DNA of 64,000 nucleotides, from the NCBI GenBank assembly GCA_016234725.1, contig JACRAK010000007.1, positions 2,121 to 66,120 on the forward strand, read 5' to 3'. The position numbers were made by a program, and so were the translations under genes. The stretch's first letter is position 1. Each line of letters opens with the position of its first letter. Under the pieces are notes generated by a model. The model was not told where the DNA came from and searched no databases. It saw only the letters and a program-made list of their open reading frames with translations. Below are positions 6,401 to 63,702 of the stretch, in pieces. This DNA comes from Candidatus Azambacteria bacterium (GTDB lineage Bacteria; Patescibacteriota; Minisyncoccia; GWC2-36-17; WO2-46-25).

Positions 6401-9400
6401 CTGTCAAATGTCCATGCTCTCGTGCCGGGTGTCGTAAATGTGGTCCACGGGGTCGAGCTTGCGGTCGAATGTGTTGCCGCATCATCAGCGATCATATACT
6501 GCGCCGTGCTTGTCGCATCGCCCGATGTCGACATGCTTACCGTTGCGCTTCCGGTCTCGCCCGCCACACCCGCATCGAATGTAAACCCGAATGTCGGCGC
6601 GACATTGTCAATAATGACGTTCGCGGATGAGTCGGTCGAGGAAACGCTCTGCGACGAAAGCTGATTTGCGAGATTATTATCATGCACAAGCACGCGCACC
6701 TTCGCGGTGTAATTTGAATAATTTGCAAGTTGCGATTCCGCCCGTTGATTCCATACAATTGATTTACCGGTTCCTTTCGTCACCGAACCGACATCGCCTG
6801 TTGTTCCGCTCGCCTTTATCCATACCGTGGTGCCGGAAGAATACGCTTTCGTGTGCCGCGTAGAAGCGCCCGGCCACGAAAGGTCGCTTGAACCGCGCGT
6901 CAATGTGCCAAGCGTCGTGCCGTTCACGATCGCGGCATATTTCACCACTTCAGTACCTATCTGCACATACCCTGACGACGGCATTTTTGATGTATCCGAT
7001 ACGGTCAGCGTCGTCGTGTTGTCACTGGTTAAAGTTACGCCCGCATCATAAAAAAGATATGCTTCGTAGGCATCGCTTGTTTCCGATGGATCATCGGCAA
7101 GATCATACGTCACCGTAACTTTCCCGGCATCAGCTACCGTGGCGCCATTGGTCGTCGCCGCCGTGGTCGCAACAACATTCGTCACGGTCGGTGCGGTATT
7201 CACCACATACGTCACGCTCGCGCTCGCAACATACGGCGCATTCAAATAATTAGAAGAAGGAATAAGCGTGATGCGATACTGATACCACTGGTCATTCGAG
7301 CCGTCGGCAAGCGCCGCGGGGATAGTTGAGAAAGTGTTCAGCCCCGTTCCTGTCGCGACCCAATATGTGTCAACGCCCGAAGGGCCGTACCATGATGCCG
7401 CAGAAAGTCCGCCCGATGCCGATGCGGTGCGCACCTGTATCTTTGCCGCGGTACCTGTTGGCAGTGTACTGACACTCATACGCACATCACCGATCACATT
7501 TGCAGCAGAACCGGAATCATACGGGGAAGAAATAAGCGTATAGCCGTTCGTGCTATCGAGCGGCTTTAGATAATTTACGGTTATGTCGTTTAATTGTGGC
7601 GTTGACCCACCATCGGTGGTCTGGAGTATGGCATCATATTGAAACCATCGGTCACCAGATCCGTCGGTCAACGCAGTGTTTGCAATAGCCCCCCTATTAT
7701 TCGCATCGACAAAATAATCGGTGCCGGAACAATTTGTCGGACCGCACCATGATGCCGTCGCAAGTCCCGAAAGCGAACTTGCGGTACGGATACGGAATTT
7801 CAAAACTGCACTACTTGACGTTACCCCACTCCAGCTGATCGAAGATATGCCGTTGCCGTCATTTTCGGTATCAAATGGCGAAGAAACAAGTGAATAATTA
7901 GTACCGGGAGCAGCAATAGGATATTGCTGATATGAAACGGTAATATCGCTCAATGATGGCGTTGTGTTGGCATATACAACGGTGCCTGTCGTAGATACGA
8001 ACGCCTTATATCGGAAATATCTGTTGCCGTTGATGATACTTGCAAGCGCGGATTGTATAATACATGTCACCGCATACGGATTCGAACCGGTCACTGTACA
8101 ATTTGTATTGTCTTTACTGAATTTTGAAGTACCAGACAGCGAACCGACCGCAGTTGTTGATCCATCGTAATTATAGTATGTCCACGGTCCGCTTGCGCTA
8201 TTTGAAGATGCAACCTGTATGTCTAGATCGGTGTTTGCCGGCTGGTTCAAATTAAACGCAAGTGAAGAAATGGTTGCTGCACCCCCAAGATCAATGACTC
8301 CTGATTCAAAATTTCCCGAAGTGGCGTAATTGTCCTTGGTGTTGAATCGTCCAGAATTAGTACCAAGCTCCGCTGCGACAAAAATATTGCCGTTGTCTAT
8401 AGAAACTATTGATGATTCACCGAATACTGAAACACCCCATGGATTCGGATACGTGGTCGACAAATTAGTCCATGCACCGCTTGCAATAGTATATTTCGCG
8501 AAATAGGGAGCAGAGTTATAGAAGGAATAAAGGGTGCCGACTCCATCAAAGACAATGTATCCGTAATTTAACATTGCGTTAGACGATGTCAGATCGGTCC
8601 ACGTATTTGAAACGATATTAAACTTGGCAAAATCTGTAGGAGCGCCTCCTACAAGCTGATGGGCAGAAATATAAATATCTCCATTCACGCTATCATGCGT
8701 CATGCTCGCGGCACCAACCGTCCACGGCAATGGTTTGGTAGCTGTTAGATTTGTCCACACGCCGGTCGCGGTATCATACTTCGCAAATTGTGCAGTTGGA
8801 GTGCTTCCTCCTGCACCAGCAAGATAAAGAGTACCGCTGCCATCGGAAACTAGAGCGCCATTGGATACAGAAAATGGTGGGGGATTCGTGCTGGTGAGAT
8901 TTGTCCAGGTGTTTGTTCCCGGATTATATTTGGCAAAATTAGTAGTCCCCAATCCCCCTATAACAAAAATATTTCCCGTGACGCTATCATACACAACTCC
9001 TCCTCCGCCCACGTTAAATGGTACCGGTTTCGTGCTTGTAAGATCCGTCCATGCATTTGACATTACGCTATATCGTGCAAACCCGTTAGTAGAATACCCT
9101 TTCACGCTATAAATTGTCGCATTGCCGTCATACGCTAATCCGCCAATGTAACTGTTATAAGGAACTGGAGCAACTTCAGTGAGATTAACCCACGCATTAG
9201 CTGATATCTCTTTATATAAATTAACGCTGCCCGCACCCGCTGATCCATTTACCTCGGTGCTTGAGTTGGTGCCATTATAAAAACCAAGTCCATTTACCGA
9301 TACGCCTGCCGCTCCGCTATTTGCGCCACTTCCGCCGGTCACTGTGGGAGCTGAACCCGATACACTCCCTCTCAAAATAACTCTTCCTCCACCTCCTCCG

Positions 9401-10695
9401 CCGCCGCTAGCCGAAGAACCGCTGCCGCCTGCGCCGCCGCTTGCGGAAATAACGCCGCTGTTTGAGATGCTTGCACTTGTTAATTCTATTCTTCCTCCTG
9501 CGCCGCCGCCGCCGCCAAATGTACATCCGGTACCGCCTGCGCCGCCGTTTTCGGTTACCGCACCAGTCACTGTAATGTTGCCGCTACTTATTATTTTAAG
9601 ATATCCGCCACCTGCGCCGCCGCCGCCACCTGGATTATATGTGCTATTTCCACTACCGCCGCCGCCACCTGCGCCGCCGAGTTCAAGATTATACGCGGAG
9701 CTACCCCTCCCGTAACTTGTACCGCCGCCATTGCCGCCTGCGCCCCCATATCCGCCGCCGCCGCCGCTACCATAAGTACTGTAACCTCCCATACCGCCAA
9801 CAGTACCAGCGCCACCGCCACGCCCTGAATTCCCATTTGTATAACTTCCGGATGTCCCAGATCCGCCACTACCGCCATTATACCCGCCCGCAACACCCGT
9901 TGCACCAGCACCCGTTGTTCTTCCCGATACTCCACAATTTGTCGCACTACCACCGTTCGCACCATTGAGATTAATGGTACCGCTGACAGTGACATTTCCT
10001 GTGGCATTGATAGTAATGGCCGTAGAACCGGTCGCGGTTAAGGTAACTCCAGAATCAATATTAAAAGAAGTATAATTATAAGTTCCCGCGGCAATTACAC
10101 AATTCGGCGCAGTGCCGCTGATACCGGTGCCACTGCATGAACTAGTGGTCAGATTGACCGCTCCATCAGTGCCCGTGCCTCCACTAAAAGTAATCGCCGC
10201 CGATCCAGTAGTGGTTAACGTGCCGTCATCCGTAACAGTACCGTTTACAACAGCAAGCCGTAAACCCCCTGGCGTAGTTGTATAATCAATATGTGCATCG
10301 GTGGTGCTTGCGCTTGTCCACCCGGTTTGGTTGCTGGTGTGATTTGCAGAAGTCGTTTGATTCACCGACGACCAAGTGGTCTGTGCGAAACTGCCCGTCG
10401 AGGTGGCGACGGTCAGATCGGTTCCCGTAGTAAGATACGACGAGCTGGTGGAATAAAAGCTCGTCACACCAGTTTGTGCCGCACCACCCGTGTGGCCTGC
10501 AGTCGCATTGGTATCGGCAGAGGCCGCCCAATCATTTTGCGTGAACGTGAAGCTCGCCGCGAGCGCGGGAGCAGAAGGTGTAAGCGTGACGCTCACCACG
10601 TTCACCGCGACAAACGCAGTGACAAATATTTTCCTCACAAGACCTTTAAACTTTGAAGCTTTTAAACTTCTGCTCCCCTTTCCACCTCGACTCAT
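3421..10695 (-). CDS. giant surface protein (2424 aa): N-terminal signal/TM anchor, long Gly-rich low-complexity tract, Kelch-like beta-propeller repeats (FAKY..W.NLT), multiple Fn3/Ig-like domains, C-terminal coiled coil
   Basis: single uninterrupted ORF; N-terminal hydrophobic segment VTAFVAVNVVSVTL...ALAASFTF; recurring ~50-aa FAKYN.GTNTWT.LTS repeats; Fn3-like blocks (ITWKTD...YYYKV). Confidence 0.8.
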   Translation of the reverse strand: MSRGGKGSRSLKASKFKGLVRKIFVTAFVAVNVVSVTLTPSAPALAASFTFTQNDWAASADTNATAGHTGGAAQTGVTSFYSTSSSYLTTGTDLTVATSTGSFAQTTWSSVNQTTSANHTSNQTGWTSASTTDAHIDYTTTPGGLRLAVVNGTVTDDGTLTTTGSAAITFSGGTGTDGAVNLTTSSCSGTGISGTAPNCVIAAGTYNYTSFNIDSGVTLTATGSTAITINATGNVTVSGTINLNGANGGSATNCGVSGRTTGAGATGVAGGYNGGSGGSGTSGSYTNGNSGRGGGAGTVGGMGGYSTYGSGGGGGYGGAGGNGGGTSYGRGSSAYNLELGGAGGGGGSGNSTYNPGGGGGAGGGYLKIISSGNITVTGAVTENGGAGGTGCTFGGGGGAGGRIELTSASISNSGVISASGGAGGSGSSASGGGGGGGRVILRGSVSGSAPTVTGGSGANSGAAGVSVNGLGFYNGTNSSTEVNGSAGAGSVNLYKEISANAWVNLTEVAPVPYNSYIGGLAYDGNATIYSVKGYSTNGFARYSVMSNAWTDLTSTKPVPFNVGGGGVVYDSVTGNIFVIGGLGTTNFAKYNPGTNTWTNLTSTNPPPFSVSNGALVSDGSGTLYLAGAGGSTPTAQFAKYDTATGVWTNLTATKPLPWTVGAASMTHDSVNGDIYISAHQLVGGAPTDFAKFNIVSNTWTDLTSSNAMLNYGYIVFDGVGTLYSFYNSAPYFAKYTIASGAWTNLSTTYPNPWGVSVFGESSIVSIDNGNIFVAAELGTNSGRFNTKDNYATSGNFESGVIDLGGAATISSLAFNLNQPANTDLDIQVASSNSASGPWTYYNYDGSTTAVGSLSGTSKFSKDNTNCTVTGSNPYAVTCIIQSALASIINGNRYFRYKAFVSTTGTVVYANTTPSLSDITVSYQQYPIAAPGTNYSLVSSPFDTENDGNGISSISWSGVTSSSAVLKFRIRTASSLSGLATASWCGPTNCSGTDYFVDANNRGAIANTALTDGSGDRWFQYDAILQTTDGGSTPQLNDITVNYLKPLDSTNGYTLISSPYDSGSAANVIGDVRMSVSTLPTGTAAKIQVRTASASGGLSAASWYGPSGVDTYWVATGTGLNTFSTIPAALADGSNDQWYQYRITLIPSSNYLNAPYVASASVTYVVNTAPTVTNVVATTAATTNGATVADAGKVTVTYDLADDPSETSDAYEAYLFYDAGVTLTSDNTTTLTVSDTSKMPSSGYVQIGTEVVKYAAIVNGTTLGTLTRGSSDLSWPGASTRHTKAYSSGTTVWIKASGTTGDVGSVTKGTGKSIVWNQRAESQLANYSNYTAKVRVLVHDNNLANQLSSQSVSSTDSSANVIIDNVAPTFGFTFDAGVAGETGSATVSMSTSGDATSTAQYMIADDAATHSTASSTPWTTFTTPGTRAWTFDSDFEVKTLKVQVRDPYANTAATSTASTIMPAASSSFLVQDVSKVGTSDWRLFIGWETATSSDFASYKIEYATSTNNTTFSSYINATTPITSISTNYYVHQNLNTNLYYRYRLGVTAANGNTSIRSNASTTAKPDGAVNLGEGGGGNDATAPVVTNVASSLVKATSATVSFNATDGASGATNAAVYFATQQDFTNNVNSGKVGRERYTSKLGNPGYLTVATSTPATHTIALSNLTKNMQYRYAAESCDATGNCAFEGASDAGYTFTTQNGPAIVSGSIVATPAFDSASITWKTDKASDSIVFYATTSASALVNPISVGSSAQVTSADGNGQYVHTVVIPNLTYSATYYYKVRSTDQNSSSDSYTQYDESTIRSLTTTTQTPPAITTMAACSTTSSTATVTWTTDQFSTTELSLLSADVGANYFSTVAGAQVAQYPTGTIDNASRAAAGYVTAHSNTFTGLTESTTYYAKVRSLNASGGEVSATLSCATIAKDVVTVGRTIVEVGDVTPPLIASLVIKDIKATAATIAWTTDESADSLVKYGVTMNYGGLAGSEEMATDHTVTVSGLNPKTAYNFKVMSADQRGNRAYSGDQTFTTLTVEEEALLAKEDLESLKKELEELRGKAKTQDSLRDAVQRFKSILKSVSTDVSLSDLEELTTEITDTISEITQEVVPPAIIGGVPQVDIDSNKATVTWRTNKPAGSLIALVPQDEYDPNAKDPYTVQVGQPREEVTTHVVTVPNLEPATAYHFQIRSQAKVGPEGKSRDFVFETKPELPQILDYSFKRITENSITVVWKTNTLSNSQVRYTPFDDGELLSKEARTQGKPEFVKDHEVTVANLTSNTNFLIEISSADVTDARASKVIGTIRTTVDEKAPVISKVRSESTIFPGKTERTQTLIYWETDEPSTSQIFWKEGVGKGDLVEFSKLDQEYTTSHVMVITSFKPGAVYRFQVESADPSNNKGRSTDFTILTPKKGETVIDLIITNFQDIFGFLKQL

Positions 10696-10757: not shown

Positions 10758-11184
10758 ATTTTATTTTTCCCAATACAAACTCCTTAATTTTCTTTGCCGC
10801 TTCATATGCCTTTCTTGCTTCTTGAAATGTAAACTCGGGGTAATCTCCTGTATATCGGGTCTCTACATAATATCTATTAAGGAGAACAAGATCGTCTTCA
10901 TAATTCTTGATCTCTTTTTCATAGTGCAATAATAGGTCTTCTAATTTTAACAAGTCATGTATTTTGGGAAATCTTTTATCATAAAACACAAGCATTCCTT
11001 TTAGGTATTTTTCCGCCATTTGTTGTGAAAGAAAGCATGCGGTGCTTGGCGCGCCGCGCTCATCTCTTAAAATTGCGCCGATAGAGAGCTCATCCTCTTG
11101 CGCTTTCTTAAACAATTCGTGATGTTTTGTTTCATTATTCATTGCCATATAAAACCTTCCCTTTTTCAAAAATATCTTCCACAA
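10756..11184 (-). CDS. HEPN domain protein (toxin-like partner of the upstream nucleotidyltransferase); true start probably an internal Met near 11148
   Basis: HEPN (PF05168-like) motifs QQMAEKYLKGML and LLNRYYVETRY; overlaps the MNT gene. Confidence 0.7.
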   Translation of the reverse strand: MWKIFLKKGRFYMAMNNETKHHELFKKAQEDELSIGAILRDERGAPSTACFLSQQMAEKYLKGMLVFYDKRFPKIHDLLKLEDLLLHYEKEIKNYEDDLVLLNRYYVETRYTGDYPEFTFQEARKAYEAAKKIKEFVLGKIK

Positions 11185-11452
11185 AAAAATCCTTCAATTC
11201 CATTCTTTTTTGCACTTGTGCCGGAGTATATACAATTAAATCCATTGCGAACTGCCTTGGAAAAACAAAGCGATCTATTTTTCGCGCCATATCCCTCGTG
11301 TTTTCAGTTTCCTTCACAATAAACAAATCTACATCGCTGTCTTCGGTAGGGTTTCCCCACGCGTAAGAGCCGAAAAGAATAATTTTTTCCGGATTATATT
11401 CCTTGCCAATCCTATCCGCTGTTTCCTGAATTTTTTCAAAAGCTATTTTCAT
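11135..11452 (-). CDS. minimal nucleotidyltransferase (MNT, Pol-beta superfamily) paired with HEPN
   Basis: GSYAWGNPTEDSDVDLFIV = GS..G..x(n)..D.D nucleotidyltransferase motif; 105 aa. Confidence 0.8.
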   Translation of the reverse strand: MKIAFEKIQETADRIGKEYNPEKIILFGSYAWGNPTEDSDVDLFIVKETENTRDMARKIDRFVFPRQFAMDLIVYTPAQVQKRMELKDFFVEDIFEKGKVLYGNE

Positions 11453-11739: not shown

Positions 11740-11750
11740 TGTGGATAACT
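11740..11750 (-). promoter_or_regulatory. DnaA-box-like 11-mer AGTTATCCACA (reverse orientation)
   Basis: tgtggataact; one of four identical 11-mers in the window. Confidence 0.5.
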
Positions 11751-13450: not shown

Positions 13451-14989
13451 TTACACGCGAAACTTCCTCTGTTCTTCCTCCTCAAGCAACTTAACCTTCT
13501 CCTCGCCTTTCTTTATCATCTCCGAAAGCTCGCTGATAGAAAACTTATCCAACACAACCGCCCGCGCTTCCAGATAATCTTTATCGTTTTTTTGCGGGTC
13601 GTCAAGAACCTCTGAAAACAAGGCATTGAGAATGACCCCCACTTTCGGCCCCGGCGCAATGCCCAATATCCGCATCACCTCGTTTCCGTCAATTTTGAGC
13701 ATTTTAACGGAGATCGGGTCTTTTGACACCTTCTCGACCATATACCTGAAATGGCGCAATTTATAGGGCTCCGCCTTTGGCACGCCCGACCCTATCCTAT
13801 CGGCAAACCGAACATTGACGAGATCGTCCATATTTTCAAGCCCGACATTCCGTACCAGCCGCCGCACGGAAGACGCCGTCACCTCGTCTACATTATAGTA
13901 AAAGAGGTGATAGCGGATGAGTCGCGCGACATCCTCGATTTCCTTATTCGAGAACTTCAATCGGCTCATCGCCTGTGCGGCGATGCGCGCGCCGATCATG
14001 TCGTGGTTGTAAAACGTGGCATTCGGTCCCTCGCCCTGTTTTGCCTTCGGCTTCCCAACGTCATGGAGCAACGCCGCAAATCGCACCGTAAAACTAAACC
14101 CTTGCTCTGCGGCATAGCGGAGCGATTTTAAATTATGCTCATACACATCGAATATATGGTGTTTGTTTTGTGAAACGTGATACCCGTCAAGCAATTCCGG
14201 CAAAACGAAATGCAAGAGCCCGACCTGGCGCAATAGATCGATGCCGTCTGCCGCGTTTTTGCACATGACTATTTTTATGAGTTCGTCGCGGATGCGCTCG
14301 TGTGAAACAACGCGAATGAGAGCGGCGTGTTCCTTAACCGCGACGAGCGTTTGTTCTTCTATGGTAAACTCAAGCTGTGTCGCAAATCGCACCGCGCGCA
14401 CCAAGCGCAACGCGTCTTCATTGAACCGCTCACTTGCGTTTCCAACCGCACGCACTATTTTTTCTTTCAGGTCTTTTTGTCCACCGAATGGATCGATGAT
14501 CGTGAAACGTAAATCCTGAATCTTGGAGCTTGCATCTTGAATCATGGATCTTGAATCCTGGGTTTCGGGTTTCAAGTTTTGAGTTTCAAGATCGAGCGCC
14601 ATCGCGTTGATCGTAAAATCTCTCCGCGCAAGATCTTCTTGTAAATGCGTCGTATATTGCACGCTGTCCGGATGGCGTTTGTCGGAATATGCATTATCGA
14701 CGCGATATGTCGTGATCTGAATTTCCATGCCGTCAATGAACGCGGTCACTGTGCCGAATTTGTTTTCGTAAAAACTTTTGGGGAACACTGCCTGTACTTC
14801 CTCCGGCTTCGCGTTGGTCGCCACGTCCCAATCATTCGGTTCGCGCCCGAGCAACACGTCGCGCACGCAACCGCCGACGGCATACGCCGCAAATCCCGCG
14901 CGCGCCAGCTCGCTCCCGACGTACATCACTTCTTTCGGAATTACCTCATGCATGCGCATACTATAATACGCTAACGCGCTCCGGCGCAA
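13451..14989 (-). CDS. cca: CCA-adding tRNA nucleotidyltransferase (head domain + HD domain), carrying an in-frame ~25-aa repeat-derived insertion
   Basis: GGCVRD...DWD, RDFTINAMA...IIDPFGG and HD-domain HDVGK motifs; insertion LETQNLKPETQDSRSMIQDASSKIQDL between them. Confidence 0.85.
   Translation of the reverse strand: MRRSALAYYSMRMHEVIPKEVMYVGSELARAGFAAYAVGGCVRDVLLGREPNDWDVATNAKPEEVQAVFPKSFYENKFGTVTAFIDGMEIQITTYRVDNAYSDKRHPDSVQYTTHLQEDLARRDFTINAMALDLETQNLKPETQDSRSMIQDASSKIQDLRFTIIDPFGGQKDLKEKIVRAVGNASERFNEDALRLVRAVRFATQLEFTIEEQTLVAVKEHAALIRVVSHERIRDELIKIVMCKNAADGIDLLRQVGLLHFVLPELLDGYHVSQNKHHIFDVYEHNLKSLRYAAEQGFSFTVRFAALLHDVGKPKAKQGEGPNATFYNHDMIGARIAAQAMSRLKFSNKEIEDVARLIRYHLFYYNVDEVTASSVRRLVRNVGLENMDDLVNVRFADRIGSGVPKAEPYKLRHFRYMVEKVSKDPISVKMLKIDGNEVMRILGIAPGPKVGVILNALFSEVLDDPQKNDKDYLEARAVVLDKFSISELSEMIKKGEEKVKLLEEEEQRKFRV
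14511..14590. repeat. tandem ATCTTGAAT-type repeat block lying in-frame inside cca
   Basis: gaatcttggagcttgcatcttgaatcatggatcttgaatcctgggtttcgggtttcaagttttgagtttcaagatcg; related to blocks at 45784-45905 and 46341-46450. Confidence 0.7.
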
Positions 14990-24225: not shown

Positions 24226-24615
24226 ATGGAGAAGAAGGACGCGAAAATACTGATCGTCGAAGATGACATCATGCTCAATAAAATATATCAAACCAAGCTT
24301 ACTCTGCTTGGGTATCAAGTGCTGGCCGCATACGACGGGGACGAAGGGCTTACGATGATGGGGGAGCACCAGCCGCATTTGGTGCTTCTTGACCTCATGC
24401 TCCCCAAAAAGAACGGGTTTGAAGTGCTTGAAGCGGCAAAGCAAGACGTGAAGATAAGCCGTATCCCCGTTATCATCCTTTCCAACCTCGGGCAGGGGGG
24501 GGACATCCAAAAAGGCATGGAGCTTGGCGCGGTCGATTTTCTCGTGAAAAGCAACGTAAAGCTGGAAGCGGTTGTGGATAAAATAGGAATTGTTTTGCAA
24601 AAGTACTATGGGTAG
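24226..24615 (+). CDS. standalone response-regulator receiver (REC) protein
   Basis: KILIVEDD...HLVLLDLMLPKKNGFEVLE...IPVIILSNLG...K. Confidence 0.8.
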   Translation: MEKKDAKILIVEDDIMLNKIYQTKLTLLGYQVLAAYDGDEGLTMMGEHQPHLVLLDLMLPKKNGFEVLEAAKQDVKISRIPVIILSNLGQGGDIQKGMELGAVDFLVKSNVKLEAVVDKIGIVLQKYYG

Positions 24616-38345: not shown

Positions 38346-38406
38346 AATGTTTGACAGCCGAACGGTGTTTGCTATAATACAGTCTGTAACATAAAATATT
38401 ACACTT

Positions 38407-38622
38407 ATGCGAACCGTCATCAATATCTCTTTGCCGAAAAAAATGACCGAAGAAGTAGAAAAGGCGGTAAAAAGCGGCGGGTATGCCTCCAAAAGCGAGT
38501 TTTTTCGGGATATGATCCGCAGGTGGAGAGAAGAGCAGCTCTTGGAGGAAATAATGGAAAGCGAAAAAGAATTCGCGGCAGGAAAAGGGAAGGTTCTTCA
38601 TTCCTTGAAAGATCTTCGTTAA
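38407..38622 (+). CDS. type II antitoxin, ParD/RelB-like (RHH)
   Basis: 71 aa; ...SKSEFFRDMIRRW...; immediately upstream of the RelE/ParE toxin. Confidence 0.7.
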   Translation: MRTVINISLPKKMTEEVEKAVKSGGYASKSEFFRDMIRRWREEQLLEEIMESEKEFAAGKGKVLHSLKDLR

Positions 38623-38625
38623 GAC

Positions 38626-38883
38626 ATGAGGATCGAATACTCGCCAAAATTTAGGCGTTGTTTTAAAAAATTTCCACCGAAAATAAAAACGAGGACGGAA
38701 GAAATGATAGCCGTGTTTCTAGACAATCCTTTCGACTCAAAACTGAAAACTCATAAATTATCGGGTCCCCTGCGGAATTATTGGGCGTTTTGGATCGACC
38801 ATCGGCATCGAATTGTTTTTTCGTTTATGGGCGCCGCCACAGTTCGCTTTCATATTGTCGGCGATCATTCCATTTATCAGTAA
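38626..38883 (+). CDS. type II toxin, RelE/ParE/YafQ family
   Basis: 85 aa; KTHKLSGPLRNYWAFWIDHRHRIVFSF...FHIVGDHSIY. Confidence 0.75.
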   Translation: MRIEYSPKFRRCFKKFPPKIKTRTEEMIAVFLDNPFDSKLKTHKLSGPLRNYWAFWIDHRHRIVFSFMGAATVRFHIVGDHSIYQ

Positions 38884-50667: not shown

Positions 50668-50948
50668 AGGCCGGCGTTTTGTGCGCTATCGGCTCATTCT
50701 CGCGCTTTTCTTTTATTTTTATCTTAACGGAAGTGCAGCCCTTCATTATTTTTTATATACAAGGGCGTGAATGGATTAAAATAAAAGAAAATCGCGAGGA
50801 TGAGCAGAAGAGTCTGTTTAAAAAAATAATTAAAAATAAGTAACGTCGCGGCGGGAGCAGAAGCCCAAATACAAAACCACAGCGTGAAGAGCGTTTTACC
50901 TTGTGGCTTTGGATTTCGGGATTCGATCTCTCTGCGAACACAAAATAC

Positions 50949-53066
50949 ATGGAAACGAAAGAATTTTCGCTCGCCCTTGGCAATAAGGCCATCGTCGTGC
51001 GCAAAAACTCGCTTGCGGGGCAGGCGAACGGGTCGGTGCTCGTCTCGTGCGGCGACACGGTGGTGCTCGCGACCGCGGTCATCAGCAAGAACGCAAAAGA
51101 AGGCATTGATTATTTTCCGCTCTCGGTTGAATACGAGGAGCGGTTTTACGCTGCGGGAAGGATCCCCGGCTCCCGGTTCATCAAACGGGAAACGCGGGCA
51201 TCACAGGAAGCAATCCTTACCGGCCGGCTTATCGACCGCACGCTTCGCCCGTTGTTTGATTCGGCGGTCCGCAATGAAGTACAGGTCATCGTGACCGTGC
51301 TTTCGATCGACCATGAAAACGACCCTGACGTGATCTCTATGGTCGCGGCATCTGCCGCGCTTGCCACCTCGAACATCCCATGGGCAGGCCCTATCGGCGC
51401 CGTGCGCATCGGGCGCGTGGACGGAACGCTTATTCTCAATCCGACATACGCGGAGCGGGAAAAGTCAGATATGGACATCGTGGTCGCGGGCATTCACGGC
51501 AGAGTAAATATGCTCGAGGGAGATGCCGCCCAGGTCGCGGAAGCAACGATCGTTGAGGCGATCACGCTTGCGCAAACGCATGTTGAAAAACTCATCGCGT
51601 TCCAAAACGATATCGTGAAAGCGATCGGCTCACAAAAGATCGCCGTTCCTGCAAAAGAAATCGATAAAGCATTCGTCGCATTCGTTGAATCGATCGTCCG
51701 CGCGGAGCTTGAAGAGATATTGTATCAACCGCACAAGCAAAAAAGATTGGACGCGCTCAATACGCTCAAAGATGCGCTCGCAGAAAAAGTCGCGCTCCAC
51801 TATCCTGATGACGCAAAGAAAGGAAAAGAAGCGATGAATTTGTTTGAAGAACTCATCAATGCGATCGTCCACGAAAACATTATTCATAAAGAGAAAAGGC
51901 CCGACGGAAGAAAGACCGACGAATTGCGGCATCTTTCAAGCTATGTTTCTTTTTTACCTCGTACGCACGGTTCCGGTATTTTCGTCCGGGGAGAAACACA
52001 GGTGCTTTCAGTGCTCACGCTTGGCGCTCCCGGCGACCAGCAGGTCATCGACACGATGGAAACAAAAGACGGCATGAAGCGCTTTATGCATCACTACAAT
52101 TTCCCGCCGTATTCGGTAGGAGAAGTAAAACCGTTACGAGGCCCGTCGCGGCGCGACGTTGGACACGGCGCACTTGCGGAACGCGCGCTTGCTCGTCTTA
52201 TCCCTCCGCAAATTGAATTTCCCTACACCATCCGCCTGGTCTCTGAAACACTGTCGTCCAACGGCTCATCGTCTATGGCATCGGTGTGCGCTTCGACGCT
52301 TGCACTTATGGACGGCGGGGTGCCGATCAAAGCGCTCGCGGCAGGCATCGCCATGGGCTTGATGTCCGATGACAAGGGAAACTATAAAGTGCTCACCGAT
52401 ATCCAGGGACCCGAAGATCATCATGGCGATATGGACCTGAAGGTCGCGGGGACAGAAAACGGCATCACCGCCTTACAGATGGATGTAAAAGTAGATGGGG
52501 TTACTATTGCGATCCTGGGCGAAACCTTCGCGCAAGCCAAAAAAGCCCGGCTTGAGATATTGTCGGTAATGAAAACCGCGCTTCCCGCGCCGCGCTCCGA
52601 GCTTTCCCAGCACGCGCCGCGCATTATTACGCTTCAGATCAACCCTGATAAGATCAGAGATGTTATCGGCCCCGGCGGCAAAGTGATCAACGAGATCATC
52701 AACTCGACCGGCGTATCCATCGACATTGAAGACGACGGTTCGGTATTCATCACCTCGGTCAACCAGGACTCGGCTCAAAAAGCGGTCGAATGGGTGAAAA
52801 ACCTCACCAGAGAGGCGAAAGTCGGCGAAGTATTCCAGGGCAAGGTGACGCGCATCATGGCGTTCGGTGCTTTTGTGGAGATCTTCCCAGGCACCGAAGG
52901 GCTCGTGCACGTATCGCAGCTCTCCGACAAATACGTAGGACATCCGGACGAAGTGGTGAAGATCGGCGACATCATCCCCGTCAAGCTCGTCGAGATCGAC
53001 TCGCAGGGGAGAATGAACCTCTCGCACAAAGTGCTGATACAAGCGGAGCAACGAAAGGAACAATAG
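50949..53066 (+). CDS. pnp: polynucleotide phosphorylase; start moved to METKEF
   Basis: two RNase PH domains, KH and S1; MDLKVAGTENGITALQMDVK. Confidence 0.9.
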   Translation: METKEFSLALGNKAIVVRKNSLAGQANGSVLVSCGDTVVLATAVISKNAKEGIDYFPLSVEYEERFYAAGRIPGSRFIKRETRASQEAILTGRLIDRTLRPLFDSAVRNEVQVIVTVLSIDHENDPDVISMVAASAALATSNIPWAGPIGAVRIGRVDGTLILNPTYAEREKSDMDIVVAGIHGRVNMLEGDAAQVAEATIVEAITLAQTHVEKLIAFQNDIVKAIGSQKIAVPAKEIDKAFVAFVESIVRAELEEILYQPHKQKRLDALNTLKDALAEKVALHYPDDAKKGKEAMNLFEELINAIVHENIIHKEKRPDGRKTDELRHLSSYVSFLPRTHGSGIFVRGETQVLSVLTLGAPGDQQVIDTMETKDGMKRFMHHYNFPPYSVGEVKPLRGPSRRDVGHGALAERALARLIPPQIEFPYTIRLVSETLSSNGSSSMASVCASTLALMDGGVPIKALAAGIAMGLMSDDKGNYKVLTDIQGPEDHHGDMDLKVAGTENGITALQMDVKVDGVTIAILGETFAQAKKARLEILSVMKTALPAPRSELSQHAPRIITLQINPDKIRDVIGPGGKVINEIINSTGVSIDIEDDGSVFITSVNQDSAQKAVEWVKNLTREAKVGEVFQGKVTRIMAFGAFVEIFPGTEGLVHVSQLSDKYVGHPDEVVKIGDIIPVKLVEIDSQGRMNLSHKVLIQAEQRKEQ

Positions 53067-53088
53067 GCATTGGCTTTGATGAGTGTGG

Positions 53089-53122
53089 AAAAGGCCGCGG
53101 GATGTTATCCGAGGCCTTTTTC
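53089..53122. terminator. rho-independent terminator after pnp (bidirectional)
   Basis: aaaaggcc-gcgggatgttatccga-ggccttttt. Confidence 0.7.
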
Positions 53123-53133
53123 TTTTTCCCTGC

Positions 53134-53211
53134 TTATTTTACGCAGAGAGGGCATGTGCCTGCGCCGGCGCAGGCAGTGCAACTGATACCACAACCATTC
53201 CCTTTCTTCAT
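53134..53211 (-). CDS. 25-aa Cys-rich mini-ORF MKKGNGCGISCTACAGAGTCPLCVK with a near-ideal SD; candidate small protein / RiPP-like precursor, or a chance ORF over a GC palindrome
   Basis: GGAGGTG 5 nt upstream of the ATG; Cys pattern C-x3-C-x2-C-x5-C-x2-C; the ORF spans the 18-bp palindrome gcctgcgccggcgcaggc; terminator just downstream. Confidence 0.35.
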   Translation of the reverse strand: MKKGNGCGISCTACAGAGTCPLCVK

Positions 53212-53343
53212 GCTCACCTCCGTTGGTGACAAATAAGCCTGTTGCCTCCATGACAACAAGCATTCGCCGTCAGAAAAGAGAACATAAATACATATATGTA
53301 TTATACGCGCTTTTTCCTGCAAAAGTATCTATATCCGCATAAA

Positions 53344-53354
53344 AGTTATCCACA
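53344..53354 (+). promoter_or_regulatory. DnaA-box 11-mer AGTTATCCACA about 12 bp upstream of a sigma70-like promoter (-35 TTGACG 53366-53371, -10 TATACT)
   Basis: exact TTATCCACA; promoter hexamers with 16-nt spacing. Confidence 0.5.
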
Positions 53355-53394
53355 ATTTACCTATTGACGCGCTTCATGGTTTTGCTATACTAAC

Positions 53395-53518
53395 AATATT
53401 GAAACATTAAGTTTCGATAAAAAAGCTTTGTAGCGGCTTAAAGCTACTAGAAATTCTTGGAGATCATAAGATCTCCATTCCAAATAAAAGTCCAAAGCTT
53501 CGGCTGAGGACTTTTTCA
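53395..53518 (+). ncRNA. candidate small RNA 1 (~120 nt): promoter, three hairpins, intrinsic terminator; no start codon
   Basis: hairpins gtagc-ggcttaaa-gctac, ggagatc-ataa-gatctcc; terminator aaagtcc-aaagcttcggctg-aggacttttt. Confidence 0.4.
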
Positions 53519-53540
53519 TTTATGCCGCCGCAGTAGTTAT

Positions 53541-53655
53541 TGACCCCGTTACAAGCTCGTCGATGGCTTTTTTCAGAAAGCGCTAAGGCGAAGCCGCCTT
53601 ACGGCTTATGCTCGTTGAGAGAAAATGCCTGATATAAGCTTGTAACGGGGTTGAC
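53541..53655 (+). repeat. structured repeated intergenic element copy 1 (tgaccccgttacaagctcgtcgat ... gctaaggcgaagccgccttacggct ... agcttgtaacggggttgac)
   Basis: 14-bp long-range inverted repeat plus an internal 7-bp-stem hairpin; partial copy at 63497-63564. Confidence 0.6.
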
Positions 53656-53686
53656 TTATTGCGTAAATAACCTTTATTATGCATGT

Positions 53687-53776
53687 ACCGTGGTGGCCAA
53701 AAGCCACCACCCAACTGAGGAGGGGACATAATCCCTTCACCTCAAAAGCTCCCTACCACAAGTCGGGAGCTTTTTA
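53687..53776 (+). ncRNA. candidate small RNA 2 (~90 nt): promoter (-35 TTGACT 53651, -10 TATTAT 53675), hairpin gtggtggc-caaaa-gccaccac, intrinsic terminator aaagctccc-taccacaagtc-gggagcttttt
   Basis: no ATG; read from sequence. Confidence 0.4.
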
Positions 53777-53794
53777 TTATCCCCCTGTCGGGAA

Positions 53795-53805
53795 AGTTAT
53801 CCACA
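53795..53805 (+). promoter_or_regulatory. DnaA-box 11-mer AGTTATCCACA about 10 bp upstream of the promoter -35 TTGACC (53816) / -10 TATAAT (53838)
   Basis: exact 11-mer; strong -10. Confidence 0.5.
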
Positions 53806-54072
53806 GGATATGCCTTTGACCGCCCTTCGCACGGTGGTATAATAAGTTCAACGAGAGATTGAGATCACTGTTATCAATATCGATCAAAAGTTTCTCGTAG
53901 TACCTTAAAAACAAGAACTGGCTCCTTTCTGAGCTAGAAAAAATAAATAGACCCTGAATTCTCTAAATTTTCAACGCATTATACACAGAGATCTCGGGGT
54001 CTTTTTTTATTATGTGAAAAACGGTATTATGAAGACAGGCCTACTGCCTGATAATTGCAGTAGATCCAACAT

Positions 54073-55308
54073 ATGAACCAAGACAACAAAATAGGACAGG
54101 GAGCTCCATCGACAAGCGGCGCGCCGGGCGAACTGCCGGTCGTCGGTGAAAAGAAATTTTTTACGCATACGATGCAAGAGGACGTTATGAGGGCAAAAAT
54201 GGACCCCGCGTCATTTGCAAAAGAAATAGCGGCAAAAAAGCCGTTTTCAGAATACATTCCTCCCGTGTCCGCTCCCAAAGAGCCGGAGATCGCCGATAGG
54301 TTCAGGGAACCGATCGAAGGCCTCCCTGACCGTGACCAGCCGTTCCCGCTTCCGGATACAAAAACTGAAAGGGAAGGCGACCAGCCGTTCCAAATACGCA
54401 TTCCTCAAAAACGCGGCGCGACCAGCGCGACCACGATCATGTTAGCGGTTGTGCTTTTGGTGCTTGTTGCGGGCGGCGGCGCGGCATATTGGTGGTTCTT
54501 CATGCGAACCCCCGCAGCGGAGGTTATCGTGCAAATACCTGAACAAAAAGCCGCTCCGCAGCCACAACCCGCACCGGTTATTCCCGTTCAGCCGGAACCC
54601 GAGCCTGAGCCGGAACCGCAACCAGAGCCCATCGCCACCACTACCGAGCCCATCGTGATGCCGGAGCCCGTTGCGACCACAACCCCGCCCGTGGTAACTC
54701 CGCCGCCCGCGCCGATACAAACCCCTGAACCGGCGCTTCCGGAGGCGGTCATTACGCTTGACCGCACTGCGATCATAGAGGTCGCAAAACTCGATAAGGC
54801 GCTTTTACTTGAAGCAATGGCCGCAGAGAATATAAAAATAACGGAAGGAAAAGCAACGATCCGTTACGCGGTAAAGCTTGTTACGGGATCGGAAAAAAGA
54901 TTTTTGACCGGCAATGAAACAGCACAGCTCCTGGAGCTTTCGGTGCCCGCCGATCTTTCGAAGCTCATGAACGCATCGGAGCTTATCGGGTATAAAAGCG
55001 GCGCGTCGTTCCGCTACGGCTTCGCGAGCGCGATCCAGGACAAAACAAACGTAAAAAATGCGGCGATTGCATGGGAACGCGCCATGCTTGATGATCTTGC
55101 CGCGTTGTACATCGAAAAAGCGTATCAAAAACCAGCAACCATCGCGTTCTCCACCAACACATACTTCGATTTCTACAAGCGCTTCATCAATATGCCGCAG
55201 CCGGACGTTTCATTTGACTGGGCGGTGTCTCCCCGCTATTTTGTCATCGCAACGTCAAAAGAAATGATCTACGCGGTACTCGACAAAGCGCGCCAGCCCG
55301 GCAAATAA
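54073..55308 (+). CDS. Pro-rich membrane-anchored hypothetical protein (central TM, P/E/Q-rich linker, C-terminal globular domain)
   Basis: TM IMLAVVLLVLVAGGGAAYWWFF; PEPEPEPEPQPEP tract. Confidence 0.6.
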   Translation: MNQDNKIGQGAPSTSGAPGELPVVGEKKFFTHTMQEDVMRAKMDPASFAKEIAAKKPFSEYIPPVSAPKEPEIADRFREPIEGLPDRDQPFPLPDTKTEREGDQPFQIRIPQKRGATSATTIMLAVVLLVLVAGGGAAYWWFFMRTPAAEVIVQIPEQKAAPQPQPAPVIPVQPEPEPEPEPQPEPIATTTEPIVMPEPVATTTPPVVTPPPAPIQTPEPALPEAVITLDRTAIIEVAKLDKALLLEAMAAENIKITEGKATIRYAVKLVTGSEKRFLTGNETAQLLELSVPADLSKLMNASELIGYKSGASFRYGFASAIQDKTNVKNAAIAWERAMLDDLAALYIEKAYQKPATIAFSTNTYFDFYKRFINMPQPDVSFDWAVSPRYFVIATSKEMIYAVLDKARQPGK

Positions 55309-55319
55309 CGCACCGCGGC

Positions 55320-56252
55320 ATGGGCGACACCCGTCATTCCATACTCTCACTCCTCGCGCTGGCACATGCGGAATCGCTGCCGGCGCTTTCGTTTACCGAC
55401 ATCTGCGCGCTTCTGCCCGTATCGAGCGCAAAGACCGCCGCACCCGAAGAAATAACATCTGTTCTTGCTCGCCTCGAAAAAGAGTGGGTTGTTGCCGCGC
55501 GCGACGGCTGGTATGCGCTCATGAAGCCGCCCGATACGGATGAAATACGGCGGCGTGCCGATATATCGCGCCAAAAGATCGCGCGCAACCGCTTTTTCTT
55601 TTTGCTTATGCAGGCGGTCCCGTTTGTGGAAGCTGCGGCGATCACCGGCTCGGTGTCGATGGAAAATGCGAATGAAAAAAGCGATATTGATATTCTCTGC
55701 ATCGTCAAAAAAGGGAGAATGTGGACCGCGCGGATACTGCTGCTATTTCTTGCGGAGCTGTTCGGCAAACGGCGCGACCACAAACGCTATTCAGACAAAG
55801 CATGCTTTAATTGTTTTGCCTCAAAAGACGCCTCGTTCCCTTTCCACAACATCGCCGCCGCGCACATGCTTGCGCGCGCGCTCCCTCTTTTTGGAAGCAA
55901 ACCGCTTGAAACATTTTTTACCACGAACGCATGGACACAAGAATACGTATCGCGCCCTACACGCACGCCGCTCATCCCCGCATCCCGCGCATTGCGCGCC
56001 GTTTCTGCGTCAACCGTATGGCTCCTTTCGGGAAGCGTTGGCAATGCGCTTGAGCGCGCGCTTGCGCGATGGCAAATAGATCGCCTGCGCCGCAAGGTGA
56101 AACAGGGAAGCGACGCTTCGGGCCTCGTGCTTCGCGATGATATCGTGACGCTCTATTACCCTGACATCAAAAACAAAGCGGTCATGGCGCTCTATACCGA
56201 TACAATAAATACTTTGGATTACGAAATGTCAGATTCGAGGCGCGCCGAGTAG
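55320..56252 (+). CDS. nucleotidyltransferase-domain protein (Pol-beta superfamily NTase with N-terminal wHTH-like region)
   Basis: GSVSMENANEKSDIDILCIV nucleotidyltransferase motif. Confidence 0.55.
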   Translation: MGDTRHSILSLLALAHAESLPALSFTDICALLPVSSAKTAAPEEITSVLARLEKEWVVAARDGWYALMKPPDTDEIRRRADISRQKIARNRFFFLLMQAVPFVEAAAITGSVSMENANEKSDIDILCIVKKGRMWTARILLLFLAELFGKRRDHKRYSDKACFNCFASKDASFPFHNIAAAHMLARALPLFGSKPLETFFTTNAWTQEYVSRPTRTPLIPASRALRAVSASTVWLLSGSVGNALERALARWQIDRLRRKVKQGSDASGLVLRDDIVTLYYPDIKNKAVMALYTDTINTLDYEMSDSRRAE

Positions 56253-59783: not shown

Positions 59784-59794
59784 AGTTATCCACA
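59784..59794 (+). promoter_or_regulatory. DnaA-box 11-mer AGTTATCCACA in the divergent M23-peptidase / uvrD intergenic region
   Basis: exact 11-mer. Confidence 0.5.
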
Positions 59795-63433: not shown

Positions 63434-63496
63434 CCGCTTTATTTATTCGCATAATTACCCAGAAAACACGCCTTCCTGGCGTGTTTTTGTTTGTTT

Positions 63497-63564
63497 TGAC
63501 CCCGCTACAACCTCATCGATACCCTCATTTCTGTTGGGAGCTAAGGCGAAGCCGCCTTACGGCT
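63497..63564 (+). repeat. structured repeated intergenic element copy 2 (tgaccccgctacaacctcatcgat ... gctaaggcgaagccgccttacggct)
   Basis: shares the 5' block and the exact 25-mer hairpin with 53541-53655; followed by a strong promoter (TTGACT-17-TATAAT). Confidence 0.6.
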
Positions 63565-63702
63565 CTTCCTGTTGCGTTAGTTTCTTGAAACCGCTAGGCC
63601 TCACATTGACTTTTTAGCTGTTTTTTTGTATAATAGCAATGCAAAAAATAAGGCTTCGATAAGCATTTCACCTTAAAAATTCAATAATAAAAGGGGGACG
63701 AA

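Follow-up and report, generated by a model that had tools for sequence, protein, structure and literature searches.

Three candidate small RNA genes, two of them preceded by DnaA boxes, downstream of pnp in a Candidatus Azambacteria genome

The gap of about 1 kb that follows pnp in a 64-kb stretch of Candidatus Azambacteria DNA, referred to here as the window, probably contains three independent genes for small non-coding RNAs (sRNAs). As judged from sequence comparisons, each of them would be transcribed from its own sigma-70-type promoter to an intrinsic terminator, giving RNAs of about 123, 93, and 159 nucleotides (nt) for units 1, 2, and 3, respectively. They are best explained as lineage-specific regulatory sRNAs, and two of them are probably controlled by DnaA. 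The gap lies between the open reading frame (ORF) at 50901-53066 (+), whose product has PNPase homologues of up to 97% identity and has a complete set of PNPase domains, and the next long ORF, which starts at 54073 and encodes a protein of 411 amino acids. A homologue of the latter is named as a hypothetical protein of Candidatus Azambacteria; therefore, the window is part of a genome of the candidate phyla radiation (CPR), or Patescibacteria. A first-pass annotation had described the region as a gene-free hub with three promoter-terminator units. The observation of the three RNA units was confirmed and strengthened, and the description of the gap was corrected in part.

The window was scanned for sigma-70-like consensus promoters, with the -35 and -10 hexamers scored out of 12. 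Fifteen sites reached at least 10/12 on the two strands, and three of these are located in the gap, all on the plus strand (53364, 53651, and 53816). Each is followed by the hairpins that the first-pass annotation had named and then by a stem with a T-run, and all three RNAs fold much better than shuffled sequences. The unit-1 promoter (53364-53391) consists of TTGACG, 16 nt, and the extended -10 TGcTATACT, and precedes a hairpin-rich RNA at 53398-53520 (fold z = -5.9 against shuffles). The unit-2 promoter (53651-53680) consists of TTGACT, 18 nt, and TATTAT, and its TTGAC is invariant in the nine aligned sequences; the RNA would extend over 53687-53779 (z = -7.2). The unit-3 promoter (53816-53843), with TTGACC, 16 nt, and the extended -10 TGgTATAAT, scores 11/12 and precedes an RNA at 53850-54008 (z = -4.9). 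All three end in a GC-rich stem and a run of 5-7 T, and these stems are kept by compensatory changes.

Comparison with relatives carries most of the argument. Species-representative genomes offered no close relative, their best PNPase being only 66% identical, and a BLASTN search of the gap against 80 pnp loci of other Patescibacteria returned chance matches only. A large protein collection supplied a series of PNPases with 97, 95, 94, 93, 90, 88, 77, 74, 71, 69, and 67% identity, and the contigs that encode them were compared (individual loci bear L numbers below). They share a conserved gene order: rpsO, NYN, pnp, the gap, a ~410-amino-acid protein, a ~300-amino-acid protein, a DksA/TraR-like protein, a ComM-like protein, a LysM-M23 peptidase on the minus strand, and UvrD. 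The gap measures 860-1180 nt at 88-97% PNPase identity, 470-490 nt at 74-77%, and about 270 nt at 67-71%. The three units were found in identical order in the seven close relatives of the gap alignment and in an eighth, L191 (the 97% relative), and their -35 and -10 hexamers are kept in 8-9 relatives. Unit 2 and unit 3 are also present in L087 and L091 (74-77% PNPase identity), from which unit 1 is absent. The reach of unit 1 is thus genus-level, that of unit 2 extends to about 74% PNPase identity, and that of the unit-3 locus to about 67%. Four-fold degenerate sites of pnp, compared between the window and the relatives, served as the neutral yardstick and are 46-63% identical. Against this background, identity is 71-90% in unit 1 and 86-89% in unit 3.

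The same alignments bear on the idea that one or more units encode a small protein and not an RNA. The first-pass annotation had noted no ORF with an ATG start in the units. An ATG ORF of 46 codons does overlap unit 2 (53679-53819, +), and a gene caller placed an 84-amino-acid ORF across units 2 and 3 in L083/L084. However, the ATG at 53679 lies inside the -10 box, the ORF has no ribosome-binding site and is not conserved, and the substitutions in the units are paired and keep the stems, unlike codon-like patterns. Close relatives differ by indels of 1, 2, and 4 nt that disrupt all reading frames of the units and so rule out a coding function, which we regard as extremely improbable. In the terms used to recognize sRNA genes, the units have their own conserved promoters, a 3′ intrinsic terminator, no conserved reading frame, and either covariation or conservation above the neutral level. 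Together with the lack of a match to Rfam leaders or riboswitches, these properties lend good support to the earlier designation as candidate sRNAs.

The units do not correspond to any known RNA family that was tried. With Rfam 15 at the gathering score, only three transfer RNAs passed in the whole window and no unit was matched. A permissive scan (E up to 10) of 52950-54200 gave nothing better than E ~1, with weak matches that rest on the terminators, and no Rfam family was found at the corresponding places in nine related loci. ARAGORN did not find a transfer-messenger RNA (tmRNA). Known families (6S, signal recognition particle (SRP) RNA, tmRNA, RNase P, riboswitches, and leaders) were rejected, none of their covariance models reaching the gathering score. 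These results agree with the first-pass annotation, which had recognized no RNase P, tmRNA, or SRP signature. Its author had proposed an Rfam scan and a covariation analysis against homologous intergenic regions; the former assigned no leader or riboswitch family and the latter found compensatory changes in the stems. Housekeeping RNAs (6S, SRP, tmRNA, and RNase P) resemble the units in being small, structured, and of the abundant type with strong promoters, but the units differ from them in matching no Rfam model, in having no tmRNA call by ARAGORN, and a distribution limited to a small clade. Unit 3 also lacks the closing stem and the central bubble of 6S RNA.

The earlier suggestion that the units could be CPR-specific housekeeping RNAs was not supported by comparison. 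Covariance models were built for unit 3 (R1) and unit 1 (R2). Wherever the region is present in a contig with a PNPase identity of 74% or more, R1 scored 98-183 bits. R2 found eight copies, including that of L191 at 124 bits, which had been left outside model building. Neither R1 nor R2 had a match in the 80 pnp loci of other Patescibacteria. A scan of a metagenome collection with the pattern of the invariant unit-1 hairpin returned 104 matching stretches; in the loci fetched, 3 of 107 pattern matches had the adjacent GTAGC/GCTAC hairpin and were real copies, all of them in close relatives. As far as the models and the metagenome scan reach, the three RNAs are restricted to one narrow Azambacteria-like clade; this distribution argues for lineage-specific RNAs and not for CPR-wide housekeeping RNAs. 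A literature search on sRNAs in CPR bacteria found no paper describing such RNAs, and we know of no characterized regulatory RNAs in CPR/Patescibacteria.

In its predicted fold, the unit-3 RNA opens with a long hairpin at the 5′ end (53851-53898). A conserved linker that stays unpaired (GUACCUUAAAAACAAGAAC, with the A-rich stretch GCACnUUAAAAAC...) leads to the hairpin CUGGCUCC-UUUC-UGAGCUAG (53918-53937), and the terminator is a long hairpin (53949-54002) whose loop is CA-rich, followed by T7. Compensatory changes occur in 8 of the 33 consensus pairs. The unit-3 locus is always immediately upstream of the gene for the 411-amino-acid protein (54073-55308, +), a lineage-specific membrane protein. 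It has 42 known homologues, none with a Pfam domain. In a structure model it has a disordered N-terminus, one transmembrane helix (residues 119-144), a Pro-rich linker, and a confidently modeled C-terminal alpha/beta domain without a match in the PDB. The same arrangement was found in the most distant relatives, L094 (71% PNPase identity), L093 (69%), and L095 (67%), where the DnaA box GTTATCCACAG is followed after 8-9 nt by TTTGAC, 17 nt, and TATACT or TATAAT. This promoter is followed by an RNA of about 150 nt that is rich in hairpins and then by a terminator, a -10-like element, and the 411-amino-acid protein gene homologue. In L093, two genes are inserted between pnp and the box-promoter-RNA module and, therefore, the RNA module is linked to the 411-amino-acid protein gene and not to pnp. 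The RNAs of L093 and L094 are homologous to each other and fold into a hairpin, a linker, two short hairpins, and a terminator (z ~ -6). R1 gave weak matches exactly at the positions of RNAs of this type (E = 0.085 in L094), and by inspection an unpaired motif GCACnUU..A.AAC after the first hairpin is common to the unit-3 family. The joint MAFFT alignment of unit 3 with its analogues in L093, L094, and L095 was too poor for a joint model. On this comparative evidence, the unit-3 locus is the oldest part of the region, with box, promoter, RNA, and terminator staying attached to the 411-amino-acid protein gene. Units 1 and 2, together with a micro-ORF and a mobile-element insertion described below, are younger additions.

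This close association could also mean that the downstream operon has a cis-regulatory 5′ leader in unit 3, either by itself or together with unit 2. Transcription would then start at the promoter behind the DnaA box, and the hairpin with T7 would act as a conditional attenuator of read-through. The module is always directly upstream of the 411-amino-acid protein gene and co-oriented with it, even in L093, where pnp is not adjacent. A conserved -10-like element, GGTATTAT (54025-54030, +), is located 3′ of the unit-3 terminator and is probably, from its position and conservation, a separate promoter of the 411-amino-acid protein gene. It has no clear -35 hexamer, which fits a leader. On the other side, such an element lies between terminator and ATG in every relative, including the equivalent TATAAT or TATACT of L093, L094, and L095, and the distance between terminator and ATG varies from about 30 to about 290 nt. 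The terminator of unit 3, GACCC/GGGTC plus T7, is strong and does not vary, Rfam matched no leader or riboswitch, and inspection of the alignments of close and distant relatives, which was not exhaustive, disclosed no conserved antiterminator pairing. We consider a leader rather unlikely. In L082, L090, and L086, the -10-like element is only 8-9 nt from the ATG, and this suggests that the mRNA of the 411-amino-acid protein gene is leaderless there.

Two observations concern the genes of this operon. In L093 (NCBI contig JACQDT010000042.1), the homologue of the 411-amino-acid protein gene seems to have been left uncalled: the frame from the ATG at 14033 matches the N-terminus of the window protein, and the annotation shows an apparent 1.75-kb gene-free stretch (13533-14032 and 14033 onwards). 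The 310-amino-acid protein encoded 3′ of the 411-amino-acid protein gene (55320-56252, +) has a borderline nucleotidyltransferase motif of the Pol-beta/MntA-like kind at residues 101-133 (20.9 bits in Pfam against a cut-off of 21; E ~1e-4 for candidate families in PADLOC).

The promoters of units 1 and 3 are both preceded by perfect DnaA boxes, a feature that the first-pass annotation did not include. The consensus of the box is well known, and DnaA also acts as a transcription factor. The perfect box TTATCCACA occurs five times in the window, against about 0.5 expected, and with one mismatch allowed there are 23 boxes, against 10 ± 3.3 in shuffled sequences. Four of the five perfect boxes are just upstream of promoters. 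The unit-1 box (53346-53354, +, within AAAGTTATCCACA) lies between the divergent promoters of unit 1 and the micro-ORF; it is centered at about -48, with 9 nt between it and the unit-1 -35 hexamer. It is kept in 6 of 8 close relatives, and L088 and L084 have the one-mismatch variant TTATCCACC. The unit-3 box (53797-53805, +, GTTATCCACAG) is 10 nt upstream of the -35 hexamer, with its center at about -49. The form GTTATCCACAG is invariant in the nine aligned sequences and was seen above in the three most distant relatives; in L191 the nine-base box is kept and a T replaces the final G. Another perfect box (59786-59794, +) is located between the divergent promoters of the LysM-M23 peptidase and uvrD genes and is conserved in L082, L090, L084, and L086. 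The box at 11740-11748 (-) is upstream of a toxin-antitoxin-like operon that encodes a ribbon-helix-helix protein and a nucleotidyltransferase. The fifth box, at 24573-24581 (-), lies inside or near an ORF and has no obvious promoter.

This arrangement compares well with the DnaA-regulated promoters of other bacteria, such as those of dnaA itself, nrdAB, and polA in Escherichia coli or sda and the DnaA regulon in Bacillus subtilis. In both cases there is a perfect 9-mer near the core promoter, conserved across species, at several promoters per genome. What differs in this lineage is that the box keeps a fixed place shortly before the -35 hexamer and that candidate non-coding RNAs follow it. 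The box motif, its position, and its conservation suggest that the promoters of units 1 and 3 are probably regulated by DnaA. A literature search on DnaA boxes in CPR bacteria or Azambacteria and on sRNAs in the DnaA regulon gave nothing relevant, and to our knowledge no sRNA family of this sort under DnaA control has been described.

The boxes could instead mark a chromosomal element related to DnaA, i.e., an origin or a DnaA-titrating or DnaA-reactivating site, which the promoters merely assist. The locus is non-coding, has AT-rich stretches, and includes two perfect and two one-mismatch boxes in about 1 kb. However, the perfect boxes are 451 bp apart and not clustered, the GC skew keeps its sign around 53 kb, and the flanking genes have the same orientation on both sides. 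Boxes are fixed 8-10 nt from the -35 hexamer, and likewise at the promoters of uvrD, the LysM-M23 peptidase gene, and the toxin-antitoxin-like operon, and the parts predicted to be transcribed show RNA-type covariation. The dnaA gene was not found among the nine window ORFs scanned against Pfam, the rest of the window being unscanned. A chromosomal element of this kind is, in our judgment, highly improbable.

Boxes are scarce in other Patescibacteria, with only 16 in 890 kb of loci. Three of the 16, all from Yanofskybacteria, have the same spacing between box and TTGAC, followed by an ORF-less stretch of about 200 nt and a terminator upstream of a dksA-like gene. These modules (L041 9644-9990, L065 9752-10050, and L071 9802-10100) consist of 3-4 GGTGACA repeats, TTATCCACAG, a TTGAC promoter, and a hairpin-rich stretch, and they sit between a 484-amino-acid protein gene downstream of pnp and the dksA-like gene. 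Rfam gave no match in the three stretches. In the window, TTGGTGACAAAT is found at 53224-53235, in the 5′ untranslated region (UTR) of the micro-ORF.

The predicted structure of unit 1 begins with a 5′ hairpin of 9 bp (53398-53418) and a GUAGC/GCUAC hairpin (53430-53447), both invariant in the relatives. A variable hairpin (53458-53477) and the terminator (53486-53515 plus T-run) follow, and these two are swapped for other self-complementary sequences in L086, L088, and L084. A candidate H-type pseudoknot, in which 53423-53426 would pair with 53436-53439, is interleaved with the GUAGC/GCUAC hairpin. It shows C-G/G-C and A-U/U-A exchanges and is 71% paired, and we propose it tentatively.

Unit 2 would form a first hairpin, H1 (GUGGUGGC-CAAAA-GCCACCAC), a second one, H2, with a purine-rich and a pyrimidine-rich arm and the loop CAUAA, and a terminator (53744-53774 plus T-run). 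It is modular: most relatives have an extra hairpin, H3, and H2 is duplicated in L088. In an alignment of nine sequences, compensatory changes affect each of the 11 consensus pairs that H1 and H2 contain. In a 1.1-Mb search, the unit-1 model R2 also gave a match of 31 bits (E = 0.002) to unit 2 of the window. This alignment sets 53660-53781 against 53393-53523, with the hairpins, the AUAA loop, and the terminators in register, and it raises the idea that units 1 and 2 may be old tandem duplicates.

Taken as sRNA genes, the units would be transcribed as discrete RNAs that act in trans as regulators. The conserved A-rich linker and the CA-rich terminator loop would be the working surfaces of unit 3 and could pair with mRNAs or bind a protein. 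A module that recognizes a protein or a ligand could be formed in unit 1 by the GUAGC/GCUAC hairpin and the invariant hairpin at the 5′ end, possibly as a compact pseudoknot. DnaA bound to the perfect box near -48 would tune the transcription of units 1 and 3, and this would couple their RNAs to the state of the replication initiator. Several points weigh against this explanation. A complementarity scan of the conserved unpaired segments against the 64-kb window gave background only, with no target. The strict linkage of unit 3 to the downstream gene fits a cis-acting role as well. The identity of unit 2 to close relatives is 55-58% (70% to L087), about the neutral level, so that unit 2 appears to be conserved in structure and not in sequence. 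The unit-1 pseudoknot has two covarying positions behind it and, in one lineage, requires that the register be shifted by one base, and the motif is the basis for the proposed binding of DnaA to the boxes.

The units are best filed, on present comparisons, in the ordinary class of bacterial sRNAs that run from promoter to terminator, as members that Rfam does not describe, and the fixed DnaA box and the CPR host are their points of interest. Tandem intergenic sRNA loci are known from other bacteria, for instance PrrF1/PrrF2 of Pseudomonas and LhrC1-5 of Listeria. The units resemble these in being short, without an ORF, and arranged in tandem in one intergenic region with their own promoters and terminators. 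They also share with them hairpins around conserved unpaired segments, an end formed by a stem and a U-tail, and a quick turnover of sequence at a conserved position. In contrast to those genes, the three units are not obvious copies of each other, and the host is an uncultivated CPR bacterium.

A bolder proposal is that an sRNA driven by a DnaA box is the conserved partner of a lineage-specific envelope-protein operon in Azambacteria-like Patescibacteria. The replication initiator DnaA, acting through the fixed box at -48, would switch on regulatory RNAs that couple the state of the cell cycle to the envelope or division, and unit 1 would add a compact pseudoknot of a new type as a module for binding a protein or ligand. 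Similar box-promoter-RNA modules are found near dksA-like/comM genes of Yanofskybacteria. We consider this proposal unlikely as a whole. CPR/Patescibacteria have very small genomes with few recognizable regulators. The locus provides three RNA candidates with unusually good comparative support, namely promoters, covariation, and constraint above neutral, and a perfect DnaA box at a fixed position is a regulatory link that can be tested. It also illustrates how such a locus grows, with an old RNA module tied to one gene to which younger units, a micro-ORF, and a promoter-targeting mobile element were added. If the units are ordinary lineage-specific sRNAs, the result is a useful annotation and brings no new principle.

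Contrary to the first-pass annotation, the gap is not free of genes. A conserved minus-strand micro-ORF of 25 codons plus stop, MKKGNGCGISCTACAGAGTCPLCVK, occupies 53134-53211, inside the 1-kb hub and outside the 53395-54020 segment in which the first-pass annotation placed its units. It is in frame in 8/8 close relatives, among which there is an in-frame six-base indel, and all eight have the ribosome-binding site, which in the window is strong (GGAGGTGA, 53214-53221). Upstream of it, on the same strand, are a 5′-UTR hairpin (53237-53261) and a TATAAT (53300-53305). The product is Cys-rich, with 23-25 codons and the consensus MKK..C(G/R)ISCxACAxAGTCPLC..K. Pfam and NCBIfam gave no significant match, the FeoB-associated Cys-rich protein family reaching only E = 0.35. 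With 78 nt, the micro-ORF is probably too short for standard gene callers. The intrinsic terminator of pnp (53089-53128, +), an inverted repeat with the stem AAAAGGCCGCGG/CCGAGGCCTTTT and a T-run, is kept with compensatory changes in the seven relatives of the gap alignment and may also end the micro-ORF transcript.

The micro-ORF and the unit-1 promoter are divergent, with units 1-3 all on the plus strand, and the micro-ORF and unit 1 occur together in eight relatives and are together absent from L087 and L091. They could be a pair similar to type I toxin-antitoxin systems, in which the divergent sRNA represses a small peptide, and the peptide is indeed short, with Lys-rich ends and a core of small residues. 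On the other hand, the two transcripts do not overlap, and no conserved duplex of unit 1 or unit 3 with the micro-ORF mRNA was found, the predictions being long, unspecific, and inconsistent between genomes. The peptide is Cys/Gly/Ala-rich, is not strongly hydrophobic, and matches no toxin family. Such a pair is very unlikely, and unit 1 is better explained as an independent sRNA gene.

An insertion of 106 nt that resembles a miniature inverted-repeat transposable element (MITE) separates units 1 and 2 (53545-53650, +) and was also missing from the first-pass annotation. Its ends are inverted repeats (CCCGTTACAAGCT/AGCTTGTAACGGG), and there is a hairpin, TAAGGCG-AAGC-CGCCTTA, in its center. 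The target duplicate TTGAC is present at 53540-53544 and 53651-53655, and the second copy is the -35 box of unit 2. The insertion is absent from this site in 8/8 relatives. A second copy of the element is located at the TTGAC of the unit-1 promoter in L088 (10427-10545 = L176), and a degenerate copy lies beside another promoter at 63496-63611 of the window. The terminal inverted repeats of the family read CCCGTTACAA.CT, and its central 24-25-mer, (G)CTAAGGCGAAGCCGCCTTACGGCT, is invariant. Like known MITEs, the element thus has inverted repeats, a target-site duplication, several copies, and presence or absence between close relatives. It differs in that the target TTGAC is the -35 consensus, so that the copy sits in a promoter and the -35 box is rebuilt at its right end, and no parent transposon was identified for it. 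All three copies abut a TTGAC that is the -35 box of a downstream promoter, and the element seems to target and regenerate -35 boxes. In L088, a further insertion of about 140 nt (11150-11290) separates the unit-3 terminator from the -10-like element that precedes the downstream gene; bounded by inverted repeats, CGCAGGACTTACGCAAATAG...CTATTTGCGTAAGTCCTACG, it represents a second kind of small mobile or palindromic element.

Two observations were made elsewhere in the window. The only promoter with a 12/12 consensus, TTGACA-16-TATAAT at 38351-38378 (+), drives a small ribbon-helix-helix antitoxin-like ORF (38408-38640) that is followed by a second small ORF at 38618; this locus probably encodes a toxin-antitoxin pair rather than an sRNA. 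The minus strand also contains, at 3421-10695, a very large ORF of 2424 amino acids.

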